This document shows positions 4,038-13,873 of a stretch of 24,148 bases of DNA, piece by piece. The position numbers and the translations under genes are program-made. This stretch comes from a virus. Lineage: Duplodnaviria > Heunggongvirae > Uroviricota > Caudoviricetes. The first letter of the stretch is position 1. Each line of letters begins with the position of its first letter. The DNA lies in IMG/VR virus record IMGVR_UViG_2778261504_000003, positions 1 through 24,148 of that record; one strand, written 5' to 3'. The notes under the pieces were generated by a model that was given only the letters and a program-made list of their open reading frames with translations, was not told the origin of the DNA and ran no database searches.

Positions 4038-4983
4038 ACGCCCACTGGTTATTAACACGCAGCTGGCGATGAAAATTGGTCTGAACGAAGCCATCGTGTT
4101 GCAGCAGCTGCATTACTGGTTGAGAGATACCGGTTCCGGCATGGAATGTGATGGTGTTCGCTGGATTTATAACACAACAGAACAATGGCTGGAACAGTTC
4201 CCGTTCTGGTCAGAGTCAACGTTAAAACGCGCATTTGCAAGTCTGAAAGCGCTGGGGCTTTTGCGTTGCGAAAAGCTCAACAAATCAAAGCGTGACATGA
4301 CTAATTTTTACACGATTAATTACGAGAGCGAGCTTTTAGATGGTGGCAAAGTGAGCGAATCCATCAGGTCAAAATGCGCCGCTCCATCAGGTCAAAATGA
4401 CACGATGGAAGAGGCCAAAATGACACGCTCCATTGGTTCAAAACGACACAATGTCATCGGGTCAAAATGGCCTGATGATCTTACAGAGAATACAACAGAG
4501 ATTACTACAGAGAATAAAAACACTTCTCGTCCGGAAGCTTTGCAACCGGACATGCAGACGGCTGAACAGGATTTTTTGACCCGACATCCTGACGCGGTTG
4601 TGTTCAGTGCGAAAAAACGCCAGTGGGGCAGCCAGGAAGATTTAGCGTGTGCGCAGTGGATCTGGGGACGAATCGTGAGTCTTTACGAGCAGGCTGCCAG
4701 CGATGATGGCGAAATCATGCGACCGAAAGAACCCAATTGGACTGCATGGGCCAATGATGTGCGCACAATGCGGATGCTGGATGGCAGAACTCACAGACAA
4801 ATTTGCGAAATGTTTGGTCGGGTGCAGCGGGATCCCTTCTGGGTAAAAAACGTCATGAGCCCGTCAAAGCTTCGCGAAAAATGGGATGAGCTGGTTATTC
4901 GTCTGGGGCGTTCGCCTGTACAGCGTTGCGTGAATCACATTTCTGAACCGGACACCGAAATTCCGCCGGGGTTCAGGGGGTAA
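4015..4983 (+). CDS. Phage replication initiation protein (N-terminal replisome-organizer-like wHTH; C-terminal DnaT-like region)
   Basis: LVINTQLAMKIGLNEAIVLQQLHYWL...WIYNTTEQWLEQFPFWSESTLKRAFASLKALGLL is typical of phage replication initiator N-domains. Position after cro/cII analogues. Start at ATG 4015 (GGATGGAA upstream) preferred over 3964. Confidence 0.65.
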   Translation: MMSLLFAERPLVINTQLAMKIGLNEAIVLQQLHYWLRDTGSGMECDGVRWIYNTTEQWLEQFPFWSESTLKRAFASLKALGLLRCEKLNKSKRDMTNFYTINYESELLDGGKVSESIRSKCAAPSGQNDTMEEAKMTRSIGSKRHNVIGSKWPDDLTENTTEITTENKNTSRPEALQPDMQTAEQDFLTRHPDAVVFSAKKRQWGSQEDLACAQWIWGRIVSLYEQAASDDGEIMRPKEPNWTAWANDVRTMRMLDGRTHRQICEMFGRVQRDPFWVKNVMSPSKLREKWDELVIRLGRSPVQRCVNHISEPDTEIPPGFRG

Positions 4984-5025
4984 GTGTTGATTTGAGGTTA
5001 TGAAGTTATTTTCTCAGGAGAGTTT

Positions 5026-5427
5026 ATGGGGGCTATTTATACCGAAGAACAGCGGGAAAGATTACAGCGTCACATCGTTGACCTTGTACGTAAAAACGGG
5101 CGTATGACAATGCCACAACTGGCATCGACAACATATGCTTCACATGATTCCATTCGCCGGTACCTGAAGATGCTGGTGAGCCAGGGCGAAGTGTATGTTG
5201 TCAGCGGAAAAGGGGTGTTCCTTTCAGAGGGAGTTTACCGTGAATGGCTGGCAAGTTCGGCAAGAAAAGCAAGGGTTATCCGCAAACCAGCACAAAAACA
5301 GGGTAAAGCCGGAGCACAACCCTACGACCGGCACCAGAACATAATTTGCCGTGAGTGCCGTCAGAGTGAGGTTATGCAGCGTGTACTGGCGTTCTATCAG
5401 GGAGATTTTCAGGAGGTGATGGTGTGA
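5026..5427 (+). CDS. Hypothetical early protein with a probable winged-helix DNA-binding N-domain (133 aa)
   Basis: AGGAGA 7 nt upstream of ATG. TMPQLASTTYASHDSIRRYLKMLVSQGEV resembles a wHTH recognition helix. Basic, Cys-containing C-terminus. Confidence 0.6.
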   Translation: MGAIYTEEQRERLQRHIVDLVRKNGRMTMPQLASTTYASHDSIRRYLKMLVSQGEVYVVSGKGVFLSEGVYREWLASSARKARVIRKPAQKQGKAGAQPYDRHQNIICRECRQSEVMQRVLAFYQGDFQEVMV

Positions 5428-5723
5428 GGGTAAGGGTTTATATCGCTGGTCCGATGACCGGGTATAAAAATTTCAACCGTGAGGCGTTCCACAATGCGGA
5501 AGAGGAACTGAAACGGGAAGGGCATACAGTCTTAAACCCGGCAGTACTTCCAGACGGGCTGACACAGCCACACTACATGGATATTTGCATGGCAATGATT
5601 CGTTGTGTGGATGCGATTTACATGCTGAAAGGCTGGCAGTGGTCAACAGGCGCTAAGGCAGAACTGGCACTGGCGGAGAAGCTGGGGCATGCAGTTATTT
5701 TCCAGGAGGCAAACAGTGAGTAA
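5424..5723 (+). CDS. DUF4406-family protein (nucleoside 2-deoxyribosyltransferase-like fold), 99 aa
   Basis: N-terminal VYIAGPMTG motif and ...NPAV... WQWSTGAKAELALAEKLGHAV pattern characteristic of DUF4406. GTG start overlaps the upstream stop (GTGA); AGGAGG upstream. Confidence 0.7.
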   Translation: MRVRVYIAGPMTGYKNFNREAFHNAEEELKREGHTVLNPAVLPDGLTQPHYMDICMAMIRCVDAIYMLKGWQWSTGAKAELALAEKLGHAVIFQEANSE

Positions 5724-6396
5724 TCAATGGCGACCAGATATTTGCCCTATAACCGGACGTGCATTTTTCATGTGGATTGAGCATCCGAAATTGGGAAATG
5801 TACCGACGTACGGTGGCCCATTAGACAGTTACACCATTCCAACAAGGGACAGCGATGGTGAGTTTTCATGTGAGCGTTACGATCATGATTTCGGCGGTTG
5901 GGTAGAAAGCGAATGTCTTGGGTTATATCTGATTGATGATAAAGAGCAATGCAGAGTCTACGAACTGGAGGAACGCATTGCAGGGCTGGAGACTAATCTT
6001 GCTGCGCTTGCGGCGGAGAATGCGGGGCTGAATAAATTTATCGTACAGAGTTGCTACGTGTTTGATGGCGAGCAGGATGAACTATCTGATGCGTATATCT
6101 GTGCAATAGACGGAAGGATGCCGCAAACCCCGGCTACAGATGCTTTCCTGGCTGATGTACGTGCGGAAGCACGCAACGAGGGGATTAACTATACCGCCAG
6201 CCGTCTTGCTGCTGCGTTCAATCACGGATTTATCAATAAGTCTTTACGTGAAGTTTTCGACGTTACGCGCATGATTCTGTCAGCGAAAGAAGAGTTGGCT
6301 AATGAACCGCACCCGATTGATGGTCTGTCCGGTGAATATGCGGAGAAATCCCTTGAAGAATGGGCGGAACAGATTCGCAAAGGAGACAACCAGTGA
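5716..6396 (+). CDS. Hypothetical early protein with a central coiled-coil (possibly Ead/Ea22-like)
   Basis: GTG at 5716 with AGGAGG 6 nt upstream, overlapping the previous stop. Central heptad-like segment ELEERIAGLETNLAALAAENAGL. Family assignment uncertain. Confidence 0.55.
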   Translation: MSNQWRPDICPITGRAFFMWIEHPKLGNVPTYGGPLDSYTIPTRDSDGEFSCERYDHDFGGWVESECLGLYLIDDKEQCRVYELEERIAGLETNLAALAAENAGLNKFIVQSCYVFDGEQDELSDAYICAIDGRMPQTPATDAFLADVRAEARNEGINYTASRLAAAFNHGFINKSLREVFDVTRMILSAKEELANEPHPIDGLSGEYAEKSLEEWAEQIRKGDNQ

Positions 6397-6647
6397 GTGA
6401 GTCAAAATGCCAAATTAATGGCAACAAGATAGAACCATGTGCAGCACTGGCAAAATCCCTTGAGCATGATGCTGAATACACGACGCGAAAAGGTCTGCTG
6501 ATATACAAAATCTGGAATGAGAGTTTAACTCGCGGCCCTGATTTGGTGATGTTGCGTTCCGGTGAATTTTCTAAATCACCAGTGCGGGTTTCATTTTGTC
6601 CGTTCTGTGGTGAAAGTCTGAAAACGTGGGAGAACAGAAATGAATGA
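6393..6647 (+). CDS. Hypothetical small protein with Cys pairs (putative zinc ribbon)
   Basis: GTG start overlapping the upstream stop (GTGA), AAGGAGA upstream. CQINGNKIEPC and CPFCG pairs. Confidence 0.5.
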   Translation: MSESKCQINGNKIEPCAALAKSLEHDAEYTTRKGLLIYKIWNESLTRGPDLVMLRSGEFSKSPVRVSFCPFCGESLKTWENRNE

Positions 6648-6951
6648 AATTAAAGAAATACCAGTAGTACGTGATGAATATGGCTGCTGGACGCATCCTG
6701 AATATGAAAAATTCTGTGATGGTAGAGAACATATTTCAACGGAAGAGTTTAACGCATGGATGGAGGAAAATAATCTTCAATGGACCATCAGAACTATGGA
6801 TGAAGATGATTTTAATCTTGATGCAGATGGTCCTGATATTTCCACCTGGGAACCGGAACGACCAGAGGGCGATGGATGGTTTATTGGTTCAATACATGAC
6901 ACCGAAGATGGCCCGGTTTGTGTCTGGTTGCGAAATAAGGCTGAAGCGTAA
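6640..6951 (+). CDS. Hypothetical strongly acidic protein (103 aa)
   Basis: ATG overlaps the upstream stop. About 27 Asp/Glu against 8 Lys/Arg, with aromatic residues interspersed (WEPERPEGDGWFIGSIHDTEDGP). Confidence 0.6.
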   Translation: MNEIKEIPVVRDEYGCWTHPEYEKFCDGREHISTEEFNAWMEENNLQWTIRTMDEDDFNLDADGPDISTWEPERPEGDGWFIGSIHDTEDGPVCVWLRNKAEA

Positions 6952-7050
6952 AGGCGATAAATCCCCTGGCAACAAAACACTGAAAATTTAAATCAGAAGT
7001 GATTTTTATTAAATCCTTAACCGGAGGGATTCCTGCACCCTCAAAACATC

Positions 7051-7078
7051 AGGAGGCCGCCCGAAAGGGCGGTAATAA
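7051..7078 (+). promoter_or_regulatory. Shine-Dalgarno, GNRA-capped hairpin, start codon arrangement upstream of the 7079 ORF
   Basis: AGGAGG (7051-7056) followed directly by hairpin CCGCCC-GAAA-GGGCGG (7057-7072), then TAATAA and ATG 7079. Confidence 0.4.
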
Positions 7079-7297
7079 ATGACTGCATTATTCAGAAAAG
7101 AATATCCGCGAAAGAGTAGAACAACAGAATTTCTGTTTCTCATTCTGTTTATCGTGTTGATGATACCGATAAACCTGCTGTTTCTGGTTTGGATAATCGG
7201 AAAAATATTTGAGCCGATTGTTGAACTGTATATCGATATGGTATGGGAACCATTCAGGGCGCTACACAACAAAATTAATCCATATAAGGAAAACTGA
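7079..7297 (+). CDS. Hypothetical small membrane protein (72 aa)
   Basis: Hydrophobic core FLFLILFIVLMIPINLLFLVWIIG. Start context as in the preceding feature. Confidence 0.45.
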   Translation: MTALFRKEYPRKSRTTEFLFLILFIVLMIPINLLFLVWIIGKIFEPIVELYIDMVWEPFRALHNKINPYKEN

Positions 7298-7298
7298 A

Positions 7299-8231
7299 AT
7301 GACTGAATTAACCAAAGAACAATTAATCGAAGAAGCGAAATTAAAAATAGCGATTGCGAAATGCCACCCCAATTCAGAGATGGCGCGGGTAGAGGGCGAG
7401 TTATTCAAAATTGCACTGGCATCGCTGGTAGCTGAACCGCTGGTGCCCGTCATGTATAAAGGAATGAAACTGTTAACAAAAGAGGGGCTTGAACTTATTC
7501 GTGACGGTATAGCTGAGGCTACAGGACTGGAAGCAATGTGTATGGCCAAGGCTTTACTGTCTGCGCCGTCAGTTCCGGTTGTGCCGGATAATGTATCAGG
7601 GTCTCTTGCTTATGCTTACAAAGAGCTTACGCCTGAGATTATGCGCGGTCATATCGCTGTATTCGAGCGATATGGAATAGCCCCAAACGATAGCTCTACC
7701 ACAATTCAGGCACTGCGAATCGCGCTGGATGGTATAGAGCGGAGTGCCGCCATGCTTCAGAGTCAGGGGGAAGGCAACCCTCATGTAACCCCGACTCGCC
7801 TGCCTGGTGGTTTCACCATTGAGGATGCGAAGGCGTTACATGAAGACTTGGTACGCAGCCACATAAGCCAGGCTTTAAGTGGCGAGAAGATGAAAAAGAA
7901 AGATCGCGATGCTGATTTGCGCTGGATTCATGGCGTTATAGTTCAGGCAGCGTGGTTTGTAAAAGCATCACTGGAGCAGAATGCGCTATCGGGTACCCCT
8001 CCGGTAACTCCGGCTGGCTGGATAAGCTGTAGTGATGCAGTTCCTGCTGAATATTGCGATGTGATTCTTCTCGATGATCTCGGTAATGTATTCCCCGGTT
8101 CTTGGGATAAGGTTTTTTGCCCCACTTGTGGCGGGAATAAGATGGCTTTTGTGGACAAAGACGGCGTCGAAGTAGAGAGCTCAACTCACTGGATGCCGCT
8201 ACCGGAACCACCGCAGGAGGTGAACGGATGA
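7299..8231 (+). CDS. Phage protein with a C-terminal DUF551-like domain
   Basis: ATG 7299 with AAGGAAAA upstream. C-terminus ...KVFCPTCGGNKMAFVDKDGVEVESSTHWMPLPEPP resembles the DUF551 signature as I remember it. Confidence 0.6.
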   Translation: MTELTKEQLIEEAKLKIAIAKCHPNSEMARVEGELFKIALASLVAEPLVPVMYKGMKLLTKEGLELIRDGIAEATGLEAMCMAKALLSAPSVPVVPDNVSGSLAYAYKELTPEIMRGHIAVFERYGIAPNDSSTTIQALRIALDGIERSAAMLQSQGEGNPHVTPTRLPGGFTIEDAKALHEDLVRSHISQALSGEKMKKKDRDADLRWIHGVIVQAAWFVKASLEQNALSGTPPVTPAGWISCSDAVPAEYCDVILLDDLGNVFPGSWDKVFCPTCGGNKMAFVDKDGVEVESSTHWMPLPEPPQEVNG

Positions 8232-8623
8232 AAAATGAAGTCGACAATGTTATCACTCTGGTACAGCCAAAATCAGAGGAGGAAGGACTCCTCAACGTTG
8301 TGATAACCGACGAAAAAAGTGTCGAGCAAAAATGCTGTCAGCATATCCGTACAACAATTTCAGAAGTGAATCGTACGATTACCTGCAAACGGTGTGGATT
8401 GGCTTTAGATCCGTTCGAACTTGTTCTCGACCGTGCGAGAAACGGTGAAAACATAGTGTCTGAGATTAAATCACTCTATGCAAAGCGGGATGCTCTTCGT
8501 GAAGCTGTGGCAAAACTTGAACGTGAAGAGAAAAATGCCAAAGCCCGGTTACGAGCAGCCAGGACAGCAATACTGTATGCGGAAAATGACCTTAAAAATA
8601 TTGAGCAGGAGGTGAATCGATGA
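8228..8623 (+). CDS. Hypothetical protein, Cys-pair plus C-terminal coiled-coil (131 aa)
   Basis: AGGAGG upstream; ATG overlaps the previous stop. CCQH ... CKRCG pairs; C-terminal KRDALREAVAKLEREEKNAKARLRAA heptads. Confidence 0.55.
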   Translation: MKNEVDNVITLVQPKSEEEGLLNVVITDEKSVEQKCCQHIRTTISEVNRTITCKRCGLALDPFELVLDRARNGENIVSEIKSLYAKRDALREAVAKLEREEKNAKARLRAARTAILYAENDLKNIEQEVNR

Positions 8624-8703
8624 CCTGGCCTGAAGCATTCACAACGGTAGGAATTGCGATGGCGGTGGCGCTGGTGGTGTATTCGATTTGCCGCTGGGGA
8701 TAA
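8620..8703 (+). CDS. Possible small hydrophobic peptide (27 aa), last gene before the terminator
   Basis: ATG overlaps the upstream stop (ATGA), AGGAGG 7 nt upstream. MTWPEAFTTVGIAMAVALVVYSICRWG has a single TM-like segment. Below the ORF-track size cut-off. Confidence 0.3.
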   Translation: MTWPEAFTTVGIAMAVALVVYSICRWG

Positions 8704-8708
8704 CAAAC

Positions 8709-8739
8709 AAAAACCCCGGATTGATGGTCCGGGGTTTTG
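8709..8739. terminator. Bidirectional intrinsic terminator separating the rightward early genes from the convergent toxin-antitoxin operon
   Basis: A-run, CCCCGGA, loop TTGATGG, TCCGGGG, then TTTT. U-tract available on both strands. Confidence 0.65.
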
Positions 8740-8759
8740 CTATTCATGGTGAATTTTTA

Positions 8760-9077
8760 TTAACAGATTGACTGAATTCCGTTTTTCTCAACCACAGAAA
8801 GCAAACGAAGGGCAGGGCCACCAGGGCGCTTTATTCCCCTTTCCCAGTCTGAAATGAGGTTTTTACTGACATTAAGATATCTGGCGAAAACAGGTTGAGA
8901 CAGATGCTCGCGCTCGCGAAGTGCCCGGATTCTTTCTGGCGACATTGTTGGCGCTGGTTGCAGACAGAGTTCATCAAACTCTCTCATAGTTTGTTTTGTA
9001 ACTGCGCCAATATCCTGAAGTGACTCCATCATTTCATGTACGGATGCAAGTGCATCACTGCGGTAATTTTTACTCAT
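8760..9077 (-). CDS. Type II antitoxin, XRE/HigA-like HTH DNA-binding protein (105 aa)
   Basis: C-terminal HTH SPERIRALREREHLSQPVFARYLNVSKNLISDWERGIKRP. Overlaps the 3' end of the upstream toxin gene by 8 nt. Confidence 0.75.
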   Translation of the reverse strand: MSKNYRSDALASVHEMMESLQDIGAVTKQTMREFDELCLQPAPTMSPERIRALREREHLSQPVFARYLNVSKNLISDWERGIKRPGGPALRLLSVVEKNGIQSIC

Positions 9078-9441
9078 TGGGTACCTCCGTAAACTGACCT
9101 TGCAGGATCAATTGCGCCAGTTGTTCATCAGTAAGATTGAGAACGTGATGCGCAGCTTTTCGAAATGCGTTTTCCTCGATGGCTGTAATATTTTCTCTCT
9201 CATTCTTTGCGTACGCATAGATGAAAAAAGCCTTTTCTGCGACGCGGTAAAAAATTATTGTCCTATAACCGCCTGATTTACCGCCACCTCTTCGGGCTAA
9301 TCGCTGCTTAATGACACCACTACCCAAATCTGCGGATATGAGTCCCTTATCAGCTAGTTCCACGACTTCTCGCAGAGCTTTATCGGAAATCCGATTTTTT
9401 CGTGCGAAGCGTTCAAACCAGGCATTTTTGAAAATGCGCAT
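9070..9441 (-). CDS. Type II toxin, RelE/ParE superfamily (HigB-like gene order, toxin first)
   Basis: Internal Met of track ORF 9070..9585 gives MRIFKNAWFERFARKNRISDKALREVVELADKGLISADLGSGVIKQRLARRGGGKSGGYRTIIFYRVAEKAFFIYAYAKNERENI..., typical of RelE/ParE-fold killer proteins paired with an HTH antidote. Alternative start 4 codons upstream. Confidence 0.75.
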   Translation of the reverse strand: MRIFKNAWFERFARKNRISDKALREVVELADKGLISADLGSGVIKQRLARRGGGKSGGYRTIIFYRVAEKAFFIYAYAKNERENITAIEENAFRKAAHHVLNLTDEQLAQLILQGQFTEVPNE

Positions 9442-12820: not shown

Positions 12821-13873
12821 ATGGTTAATACTGTAAAAATATCCAGTTGTGAGTTAATCAACGCTGATTGCCTGGAATTTATCCAGACCTTACCGGAAAA
12901 CTCTGTCGATCTGATAGTCACAGACCCGCCATACTTTAAAGTGAAGCCCGAGGGCTGGGATAACCAGTGGAAGGGCGACGATGATTACCTGAAATGGCTG
13001 GATCAGTGTCTGGCGCAATTCTGGCGGGTACTGAAACCTGCCGGAAGTCTCTACCTGTTCTGTGGTCATCGCCTGGCATCTGACACCGAAATCATGATGC
13101 GTGAACGCTTTAATGTGCTGAATCACATTATCTGGGCGAAACCGTCCGGGCGCTGGAACGGGTGTAACAAGGAAAGCCTGCGGGCGTATTTCCCGGCAAC
13201 AGAACGCATTCTGTTTGCTGAACATTATCAGGGACCATATCAGCCCAAAAGTGACGGCTATGCGGCAAAAGAAAGGGAACTCAAACAGCACATAATGGCA
13301 CCGCTGATATCGTATTTCAGGGATGCTCGTGCCGAACTGGGTATAACGGCAAAACAAATTGCCGAAGCCACAGGTAAGAAAAATATGGTTTCCCACTGGT
13401 TTGGTGCCAGTCAGTGGCAGTTGCCGAATGAGGCTGACTATCGGAAGTTACAGGCACTGTTTTCCCGTATAGCGGCAGAGAAGTTTCAGGAACAACAACT
13501 GGAACAACCACACCACCAGCTGGTGGCATCTTATGATTCACTGAATCGCAAATATTCTGAATTGCTGGATGAGTTTAAATCTCTCCGGCGCTATTTCTCC
13601 GTATCAGTCTCCGTGCCTTATACCGATGTCTGGACGCATAAGCCCGTTCAGTTCTACCCGGGTAAACATCCGTGCGAGAAACCGGCGGATATGCTCCGGC
13701 AAATAATCAATGCCAGTAGTCGACCTGGTGATCTGGTTGCTGATTTCTTTATGGGATCCGGTTCCACAATAAAAGCAGCAATGGCGCTGGGGCGTCGGGC
13801 GTTAGGTGTTGAACTTGAGTCAGAGCGGTTTAATCAGACGGCGAAAGAGGTAAGTGAACTGGTGGGGAAATAA
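12821..13873 (+). CDS. DNA methyltransferase, N6-adenine/N4-cytosine amino-MTase family (motif IV before motif I)
   Basis: DPPY motif near the N-terminus (LIVTDPPYF) and AdoMet-binding FxGxG motif near the C-terminus (DFFMGSGSTIKAA). Located between Q and the lysis cassette, where lambdoid phages commonly carry a methylase. Confidence 0.85.
   Translation: MVNTVKISSCELINADCLEFIQTLPENSVDLIVTDPPYFKVKPEGWDNQWKGDDDYLKWLDQCLAQFWRVLKPAGSLYLFCGHRLASDTEIMMRERFNVLNHIIWAKPSGRWNGCNKESLRAYFPATERILFAEHYQGPYQPKSDGYAAKERELKQHIMAPLISYFRDARAELGITAKQIAEATGKKNMVSHWFGASQWQLPNEADYRKLQALFSRIAAEKFQEQQLEQPHHQLVASYDSLNRKYSELLDEFKSLRRYFSVSVSVPYTDVWTHKPVQFYPGKHPCEKPADMLRQIINASSRPGDLVADFFMGSGSTIKAAMALGRRALGVELESERFNQTAKEVSELVGK

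Follow-up and report, generated by a model that had tools for sequence, protein, structure and literature searches.

The stretch of DNA considered here (the window) comprises 24,148 nucleotides of IMG/VR virus record IMGVR_UViG_2778261504_000003, assigned to the Caudoviricetes, and the gene under study occupies positions 6640-6951 on its + strand. The encoded protein of 103 amino acids is strongly acidic and, judging by its sequence, its motifs and its predicted fold, is a member of the orf184 / PHROG 1372 family. That family is already known and functionally unsolved, and the protein is thus an added member rather than the founder of a new group. One relative, orf184 of phage mEp213, is a trigger of the gop-beta-cII abortive-infection system, and this connection frames what can be said about function.

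The acidic gene and its family

The gene and the features within and immediately before it are as follows.

6640-6951, + strand: coding sequence of the acidic 103-amino-acid protein, orf184 / PHROG 1372 family, ATG to TAA (open reading frame list, phrog_1372 match, codon bias)
6640-6647, + strand: 8 nt (ATGAATGA) shared by the 5' end of this gene and the 3' end of the upstream gene (open reading frames 6360..6647 and 6640..6951)
6628-6632, + strand: Shine-Dalgarno-like GGGAG, 7 nt 5' of the ATG and within the upstream gene (read from the sequence)
6664-6705, + strand: conserved N-terminal motif V-x-R-D-x-x-G-x-W-T-H-P-x-Y, residues 9-22 (alignment A1)
6799-6837, + strand: acidic linker DEDDFNLDADGPD of variable length, residues 54-66 (length variation in A1, acidic fraction per column)
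6847-6933, + strand: conserved C-terminal block W-x-P-x-x-P-x-G-x-G-W-F-x-G-S-I-H-D-T-E-D-G-P-x-C-x-W-x-R, residues 70-98 (A1, conservation)
6895-6912, + strand: beta-hairpin tip HDTEDG of the C-terminal block, conserved and exposed

The reading frame is a genuine, strongly conserved gene. This is evident because variable sites fall at codon positions 1, 2 and 3 in the numbers 31, 23 and 70 among 39 distinct alleles (from 71 full-length close copies), with a median ratio of nonsynonymous to synonymous substitution (dN/dS) of 0.09. An identical gene is annotated by PGAP as 'hypothetical protein' WP_001002669.1. The initial annotation had described a small, strongly acidic protein with interspersed aromatic residues, and this description holds in full: aspartate and glutamate number 27 against 8 lysines and arginines, the net charge is -19.2 at pH 7, the isoelectric point (pI) is 4.13, and 12 aromatic residues (6 W, 4 F and 2 Y) are present. 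No other among the 79 open reading frames of at least 60 amino acids in the window is as acidic, the net negative charge per residue being 0.18, compared with 0.10 for the runner-up. The claim that the gene is translationally coupled to its neighbor is likewise borne out. Its ATG at 6640 falls inside the upstream reading frame, whose stop codon lies at 6645-6647, and a Shine-Dalgarno-like sequence precedes it within that frame. The same arrangement appears in the PGAP annotation of a 99% identical prophage, and the preceding genes overlap in similar fashion (5427/5424, and GTGA at 6393-6396 with PGAP's start).

The protein matches phrog_1372 ('unknown function') at E 2.2e-54 and has no Pfam match at E <= 0.1 and no NCBIfam match. 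A tblastn search of the phage collection placed the family in 50 phage records, every one annotated 'hypothetical', from phages of Escherichia, Erwinia, Klebsiella, Pectobacterium, Dickeya, Serratia, Providencia, Pseudomonas and Nitrincola, with Yersinia PY54 and Burkholderia phi1026b among the named carriers. A word-indexed search gave 161 clusters of relatives, and a profile search extended the family to 891 representatives at 50% identity clustering. Copies are carried by 899 of 5426 complete E. coli genomes (17%), up to four per genome; 101 of the E. coli copies reside on plasmids, consistent with P1-like phage-plasmids such as D6. The copies in the window, D6 and mEp213 each score E <= 1e-40 against the family hidden Markov model.

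Conservation is concentrated in the two motif regions. Across 137 non-redundant domains, residues of the N-terminal motif reach 0.96 (R11), 0.99 (G15), 0.89 (W17), 0.99 (H19) and 0.93 (P20); C94 is conserved at 79%, H19 and H86 show little or no variation, and the D87-T-E-D motif is kept. The WTHP and GWF-x-GSIHDTEDGP-x-C-x-W-x-R motifs are all present in the 6640-6951 protein. Acidity is also a trait of the whole family rather than a chance property of this member, because the net charge of 231 domain instances averages -14.5 (range -21 to -2) and is never positive. A hypervariable or diversifying linker was considered and rejected: the ratio of nonsynonymous to synonymous polymorphism (pN/pS) is 0.20 in residues 47-69, compared with 0.17 and 0.10 in the flanks, so that variation is not enriched there.

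Activation of gop-beta-cII by orf184

The link to a phenotype came from supplementary tables. A full-text literature search by identifiers and motif strings returned no match, while the invariant motif, searched in the supplementary tables of Silas et al. (bioRxiv 10.1101/2023.04.06.535777), identified mEp213 protein AFM76385.1 (mEp213_045), which is UDP0184, or 'orf184', of a 200-gene accessory library. The 6640-6951 protein aligns with it by BLASTP at 44% identity over 100 of its 103 residues (E 4e-32). The two have their conserved motifs in common, both are strongly acidic (orf184 has 23 acidic and 6 basic residues), and both are early accessory genes of lambdoid phages. They differ in the linker, which is 6 residues shorter in the 6640-6951 protein, and in the operon: the window gene lies in a nin-like rightward region, whereas mEp213 orf184 belongs to the leftward operon, where it sits between N and cIII in the slot that holds ral/ea10 in lambda, with Erf and Abc2 further downstream.

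Expression of orf184 causes programmed cell death in strain ECOR59, and transposon suppressors map to beta and gop of the P4-encoded gop-beta-cII locus, which lies in a P4-satellite hotspot; orf184-triggered death has been rebuilt with gop-beta-cII in a lab strain (bioRxiv 10.1101/2023.04.06.535777). The same locus protects against lambda and P1 (Rousset et al., PMC9122126). Since orf184 activates gop-beta-cII, the family is one that bacterial immunity senses. In this respect orf184 resembles Abc1/orf116, orf24 and Aop1/orf7, which are also variable early accessory genes beside known counter-defense genes, and whose sole known phenotype is also the activation of a prophage- or satellite-encoded cell-death system (bioRxiv 10.1101/2023.04.06.535777). 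The likeness does not extend to the proteins, as Abc1 (helix-turn-helix) and Aop1 (basic, pI about 8) are unrelated to orf184 and each triggers another system (Silas et al.).

A cryptic homologue in lambda or P1, which would have explained their restriction by gop-beta-cII, was sought and rejected. At profile level neither lambda nor nucleotides 1-48000 of P1 contains a family homologue (best E about 1), and the tblastn search of the whole phage collection gave no P1 match. As lambda and this part of P1 lack a homologue and are restricted nonetheless, gop-beta-cII should have several triggers or sense a common perturbation. Gop itself resembles a membrane toxin, because it has two N-terminal hydrophobic segments. 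P4 beta is acidic (pI 5.3), while P4 cII, of the sce7726 family, is basic (pI 9.4, net +11). It is conceivable, as pure speculation, that a protein of charge -19 binds this basic cII component.

Two side observations concern the distribution of the sensing system. P4-type gop-beta is present in only 39 of the 5426 complete E. coli genomes, in copies all at least 99% identical, compared with the 899 genomes that carry the family. In Escherichia phage Rac-SA53 (KU052037.1, 6001-9028), an IS1 and then a convergent gene pair lie directly 3' of the family member rac22. One gene of the pair is a true, though distant, homologue of P4 cII/sce7726 (E 1e-16), and the other of P4 beta (E 3.5e-8, full length). 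The interval contains no reading frame that resembles gop. Homologues of two of the three components of the system that senses orf184 therefore adjoin an orf184-family gene, though a functional link could not be established; a literature search on sce7726- and beta-family proteins gave nothing useful.

Predicted fold, surface charge and the DNA-mimic question

An AlphaFold2 model of the 6640-6951 protein, built on alignment A1, has a predicted local distance difference test score (pLDDT) of 83.3 and a predicted template modeling score of 0.72. It places helices at residues 20-26 and 34-43, a strand at 46-52, an acidic coil of lowest confidence at 53-79, and the strands of a C-terminal beta-hairpin at 80-88 and 91-99. 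The linker, residues 54-66, is acidic by composition and lies in the region of lowest confidence (pLDDT about 71 over residues 51-70). Foldseek against all PDB chains found no match at E <= 1e-3, and sequence searches of the PDB, by single sequence and by profile, were empty. Matches in BFVD (template modeling scores 0.86, 0.71 and 0.70; E 4e-10 to 5e-6) are to uncharacterized family members only. With the PDB searches empty and BFVD returning family members alone, the predicted family fold, a compact alpha/beta, self-contained domain of ~100 amino acids, has no characterized structural relative. The order of secondary-structure elements agrees with that in the coordinates of orf184.

Charge geometry was taken from the AlphaFold model of ORF184 provided by Silas et al. 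(pLDDT mostly 90-98), transcribed from their supplement and verified by sequence and Calpha spacing. This model is compact and globular, measuring about 41x33x23 A. In this monomer model of a homologue, examined without an Ocr-type control, the directions of the 23 carboxylates have a resultant length of 0.17-0.18 compared with 0.17 for random residue sets (p = 0.41), and their nearest-neighbor spacing is irregular (4.9-12.7 A). The columns that are acidic throughout the family are not polarized on the model either (p = 0.22). Most of the invariant residues (Trp, Pro, Gly, Ile, Cys, Arg) are buried in it. Residues E92/D93, equivalent to E89/D90 of the 6640-6951 protein, are exposed; on the combined evidence of the model and family conservation, this hairpin tip is the sole acidic feature that is both strongly conserved and exposed.

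The same model bears on whether the protein could be a small metalloprotein or enzyme using His19/His86, Cys94 and Asp/Glu residues. The (near-)invariance of both histidines, the 79% conservation of C94 and the conserved D87-T-E-D invite the idea, but the distances are unfavorable: the two histidines are separated by 11.7-14.5 A, the distances from the conserved cysteine to these histidines are 7.9 and 12.4 A, and His89 is engaged in a hydrogen bond to Ser87 at 2.64 A. An Arg101-Glu44 salt bridge (3.4 A) is also present. A metal or catalytic site built from the invariant histidines and cysteine is effectively ruled out by these distances in the orf184 model, and since the invariant residues are mostly buried core and no enzyme family or fold matches, an enzymatic role is scarcely credible.

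Ocr and ArdA form elongated dimers that mimic B-DNA. The initial annotation suggested that the protein is a DNA mimic of this kind, or an anti-defense factor more generally; as a mimic, its acidic surface would imitate B-DNA and block type I (or type III/BREX) restriction enzymes. The resemblances are of a general sort. Like the 6640-6951 protein (net charge -19, pI 4.1), Ocr (T7 gp0.3) and ArdA are small, early and very acidic (pI about 4; bioRxiv 10.1101/2023.04.06.535777), and like the family they are encoded in accessory regions of phages or mobile elements. The early accessory position fits as well, the mEp213 member occupying the slot that holds ral in lambda. Like orf184, Ocr and ArdA also trip cell-death systems, in their case PARIS, Ronin and EcoR22I (Silas et al.). 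Finally, the family is recurrently fused to Lar-type 'restriction alleviation' zinc ribbons, and Lar and Ral of Rac and lambda occupy the same genomic slots. The Lar Pfam family, however, takes its name from a single tested member; the 6640-6951 protein has neither a zinc ribbon nor similarity to Lar or Ral, and Ral acts by stimulating a methyltransferase, not via charge (bioRxiv 10.1101/2023.04.06.535777).

Against these resemblances stand several comparisons. The 6640-6951 protein does not fall in the Ocr (PF08684) or ArdA (PF07275) family in Pfam at E <= 0.1 or in PDB searches, it has no PHROG similarity to Ocr, ArdA or other mimics, and its model shows no fold similarity to a solved DNA mimic among all PDB chains. 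Whereas Ocr and ArdA are elongated dimers, the modeled orf184-family domain is a compact globule with isotropic charge, so that the orf184 monomer model leans against the DNA-like charge distribution that had been anticipated. For lambda on MG1655 (EcoKI), the screen log of Silas et al. notes 'ardA, ral, ocr are hits' for each of three replicates, with no mention of UDP0184, although the library contained it; in the same screen, then, EcoKI restriction was relieved by Ocr, ArdA and Ral but not by orf184. The sensors differ too, since Ocr, ArdA and Aop1 set off Ronin (an HsdMS decoy) and EcoR22I, and orf184 is not among the listed triggers (bioRxiv 10.1101/2023.04.06.535777). Of the traits that define Ocr and ArdA, strong acidity is the one that the protein clearly shares. 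A B-DNA mimic of their type that blocks type I restriction is thus not supported, and this reading of the gene is now quite improbable. The wider notion of an anti-defense factor survives in part: the homologue's triggering of gop-beta-cII places the family in the interplay between phages and immunity, while the Ocr/ArdA-type anti-restriction role finds no support.

Prophage setting, mobility and likely function

The surroundings of the gene include the following features.

6393-6647, + strand: upstream coupled gene, PHROG 4030 (phrog_4030, E 8e-41), 84 amino acids by PGAP's start, reading frame open from 6360
995-1046, - strand: DicF antisense small RNA gene (Rfam RF00039, 76.7 bits, E 1.4e-15)
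7050-7055, + strand: AGGAGG, Shine-Dalgarno-like, 5' of the DUF4014 gene
7056-7074, + strand: GC-rich hairpin GGCCGCCC-GAAA-GGGCGGT, followed by AATAA and then the ATG (7079) of the DUF4014 gene
8760-9077, - strand: helix-turn-helix antitoxin-like gene, inserted antisense within the rightward early operon
9070-9441, - strand: RelE/ParE-family toxin gene (PGAP's start), antisense within the rightward early operon
12821-13873, + strand: stand-alone DNA methyltransferase gene (PGAP annotation of the identical prophage), directly 5' of the lysis cassette

A prophage that shares 99% identity with the window is found in E. coli JB2 and other strains. In JB2, the PGAP gene order begins with integrase, excisionase, a RecE-like exonuclease, kil and a dicB remnant; cI-like and cro-like regulators, a YdaT-family protein, a replication protein, DUF977 and DUF4406 come next, followed by an Ead/Ea22-like protein, a small hypothetical protein and the acidic gene. 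On the 3' side of the latter are DUF4014, DUF551, a hypothetical protein and the opposite-strand helix-turn-helix and RelE/ParE pair, then DUF968, RusA, DUF1133, the DNA methyltransferase, lysis genes, and terminase and head genes. DicF, together with the nearby kil and dicB remnant in the matching prophage, marks the element as a Rac/Qin-type lambdoid prophage of E. coli.

Within this order the acidic gene follows the cro-like gene, the gene at the cII position and the replication genes, and it precedes RusA and the Q-like and lysis genes. Because no promoter- or terminator-like site was detected on the + strand in 4900-8800 of the window, it is most simply read as an internal cistron of the rightward early operon, at the position of the nin region of lambda. 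Its description as an early gene is consistent with this synteny, which is the basis of the claim. The upstream PHROG 4030 product carries a C-terminal CPFCG motif and gives marginal matches to Lar-like (E 0.058) and other zinc-ribbon families (E about 0.06); true Lar-type ribbons occur elsewhere fused to the acidic domain. This neighbor is missing from 30 diverse family loci and is confined to close relatives. Further downstream, the hairpin at 7056-7074 lacks a T-tract and so is not an intrinsic terminator; placed between a Shine-Dalgarno-like site and a start codon, it could bring them together or gate translation. The methyltransferase may provide a self-methylation route by which the same phage evades restriction.

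This setting also speaks to the possibility that the gene is a moron, that is, a prophage-expressed defense or superinfection-exclusion gene. Its location in a variable accessory region of the prophage, with a Ren-like exclusion protein (DUF977) and the RelE/ParE toxin-antitoxin pair among the neighbors, would suit such a role. However, the gene lacks its own promoter, its translation is coupled to that of its neighbor within a repressed early operon, the protein matches none of the PADLOC defense families at E <= 0.1, and its homologue orf184 triggers defense rather than being one. A moron is therefore very unlikely.

Beyond the window, the family behaves as a mobile unit. Among 146 profile representatives, 62 are stand-alone, and extensions of at least 50 amino acids (34 N-terminal, 38 C-terminal) fall into 45 partner clusters. 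The commonest partner is a conserved module of ~95 amino acids that Pfam does not detect, ERxRQ...EG(W/Y)T..HDD...GEL.AAA.CY...WPW...KP...R.L.KAGAL.LAEIERLDR (in proteins P0183, P0154, P0185, P0211, P0227, P0215, P0193 and P0256); the same module also ends many Ead/Ea22-like mosaic proteins and forms the C-terminus of PHROG 14548. Coiled coils and the recurrent Lar-type zinc ribbons are further partners, as are a Rv2179c-like exonuclease, RdgC, a DHH/DHHA1 phosphoesterase, a Tad2-like domain and KTSC. Clustering of the reading frames up to 3.5 kb to either side at 31 diverse loci revealed no neighbor common to all, and a conserved partner gene was set aside as a candidate. In 12 of these 31 loci the family gene is flanked on one side by recombination genes (ERF, DUF2303) and on the other by xis-int, on the same strand. 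The family is thereby found in three early slots: nin-like in the window, N-cIII in mEp213, and between recombination genes and xis-int in these 12 prophages. From the fusions and the varied neighborhoods it follows that the orf184-family domain is sufficient in itself and travels as a module between early accessory zones of temperate phages.

Such promiscuous fusions would be explained if the domain were a passive acidic module, serving for solubility, as a chaperone-like aid or as an adaptor, without a specific target. Roughly half of the representatives carry a fusion, at either terminus, and the modeled isotropic charge and scarcity of conserved exposed residues are in keeping with this view. 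Yet the 62 stand-alone members, the very strong conservation of the motifs, exposed hairpin tip included, and the specific activation by one member of a single abortive-infection system, in one strain among those tested, argue against passivity and make it unlikely.

The main rival holds that the protein is an accessory factor of phage DNA metabolism, which modulates a phage or host nuclease, a recombinase, a single-stranded DNA-binding protein or a replisome component, and not immunity. Fusions to RdgC, to the Rv2179c-like 3'-5' exonuclease and to the DHH/DHHA1 phosphoesterase favor it, as do the adjacent replication genes in the window and ERF/DUF2303 recombination genes in other prophages, the strong purifying selection (dN/dS 0.09) and the wide distribution of the family across Proteobacteria. 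Each enzyme fusion is nevertheless found in just 1-2 representatives, and the loci reveal no conserved neighbor or obligate partner, the best being xis/int in 12 of 31. The gene is also dispensable in most lambdoid phages, lambda itself being without a homologue, and the abortive-infection system responds to orf184 expressed alone, without phage DNA. Involvement in DNA metabolism is accordingly a real possibility, albeit one that the evidence leaves well short of probable.

The favored explanation, for which the chances appear about even, is that the 6640-6951 protein is an early accessory factor that binds a basic host or defense protein. It would be made early from the rightward operon and act stoichiometrically as a soluble, 12-kDa protein-binding factor. 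Its acidic surface and the conserved, exposed hairpin tip HDTEDG may engage the basic partner, probably a nucleic-acid-binding host or defense protein, with the tip as the likely specific contact. The gop-beta-cII system would then detect the orf184-family protein or its consequence.

Several points weigh against this explanation. Triggering of gop-beta-cII has been demonstrated for orf184 alone, from which the window protein differs at 44% identity and by a linker 6 residues shorter. Across the 45 restricted phage-host pairs of the pooled screen, orf184 had no host-sensitizing phenotype; such phenotypes are listed only for Ocr, Ral, ArdA, six novel genes and IpII, and the single phenotype of any kind listed for orf184 is that of a cell-death trigger (bioRxiv 10.1101/2023.04.06.535777). 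Because orf184 was null in that screen, no family member has positive evidence of counter-defense. Strong purifying selection with no hypervariable patch is atypical of a fast arms-race factor. The charge geometry derives from a homologue's monomeric AlphaFold model without a positive control such as Ocr, and the step at which a basic protein would be bound draws on charge, size, early timing and analogy.

A bolder version of the favored explanation, more tentative and on balance doubtful, is that these proteins are widespread early phage inhibitors of new fold whose acidic surface and hairpin tip neutralize a host immunity or DNA-transaction factor, with gop-beta-cII as a guard that detects the inhibitor or its effect. 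As lambda is restricted by gop-beta-cII and lacks the family, such a guard would sense a host perturbation that several phage proteins can cause.

Taken together, the linking of the window gene to the orf184 family turns a guess based on composition into a testable hypothesis. It also counsels caution, in that acidic early proteins should not be annotated as DNA mimics from charge alone. The family is common yet unnamed, with copies in ~17% of complete E. coli genomes and a span of 891 clusters, and it ranges over phages of Enterobacterales, Pseudomonas, Burkholderia and others without a Pfam model or structural precedent. Its member orf184 is one of the few defined protein triggers of an abortive-infection system, and finding the partner of a soluble 12-kDa protein is a tractable problem.

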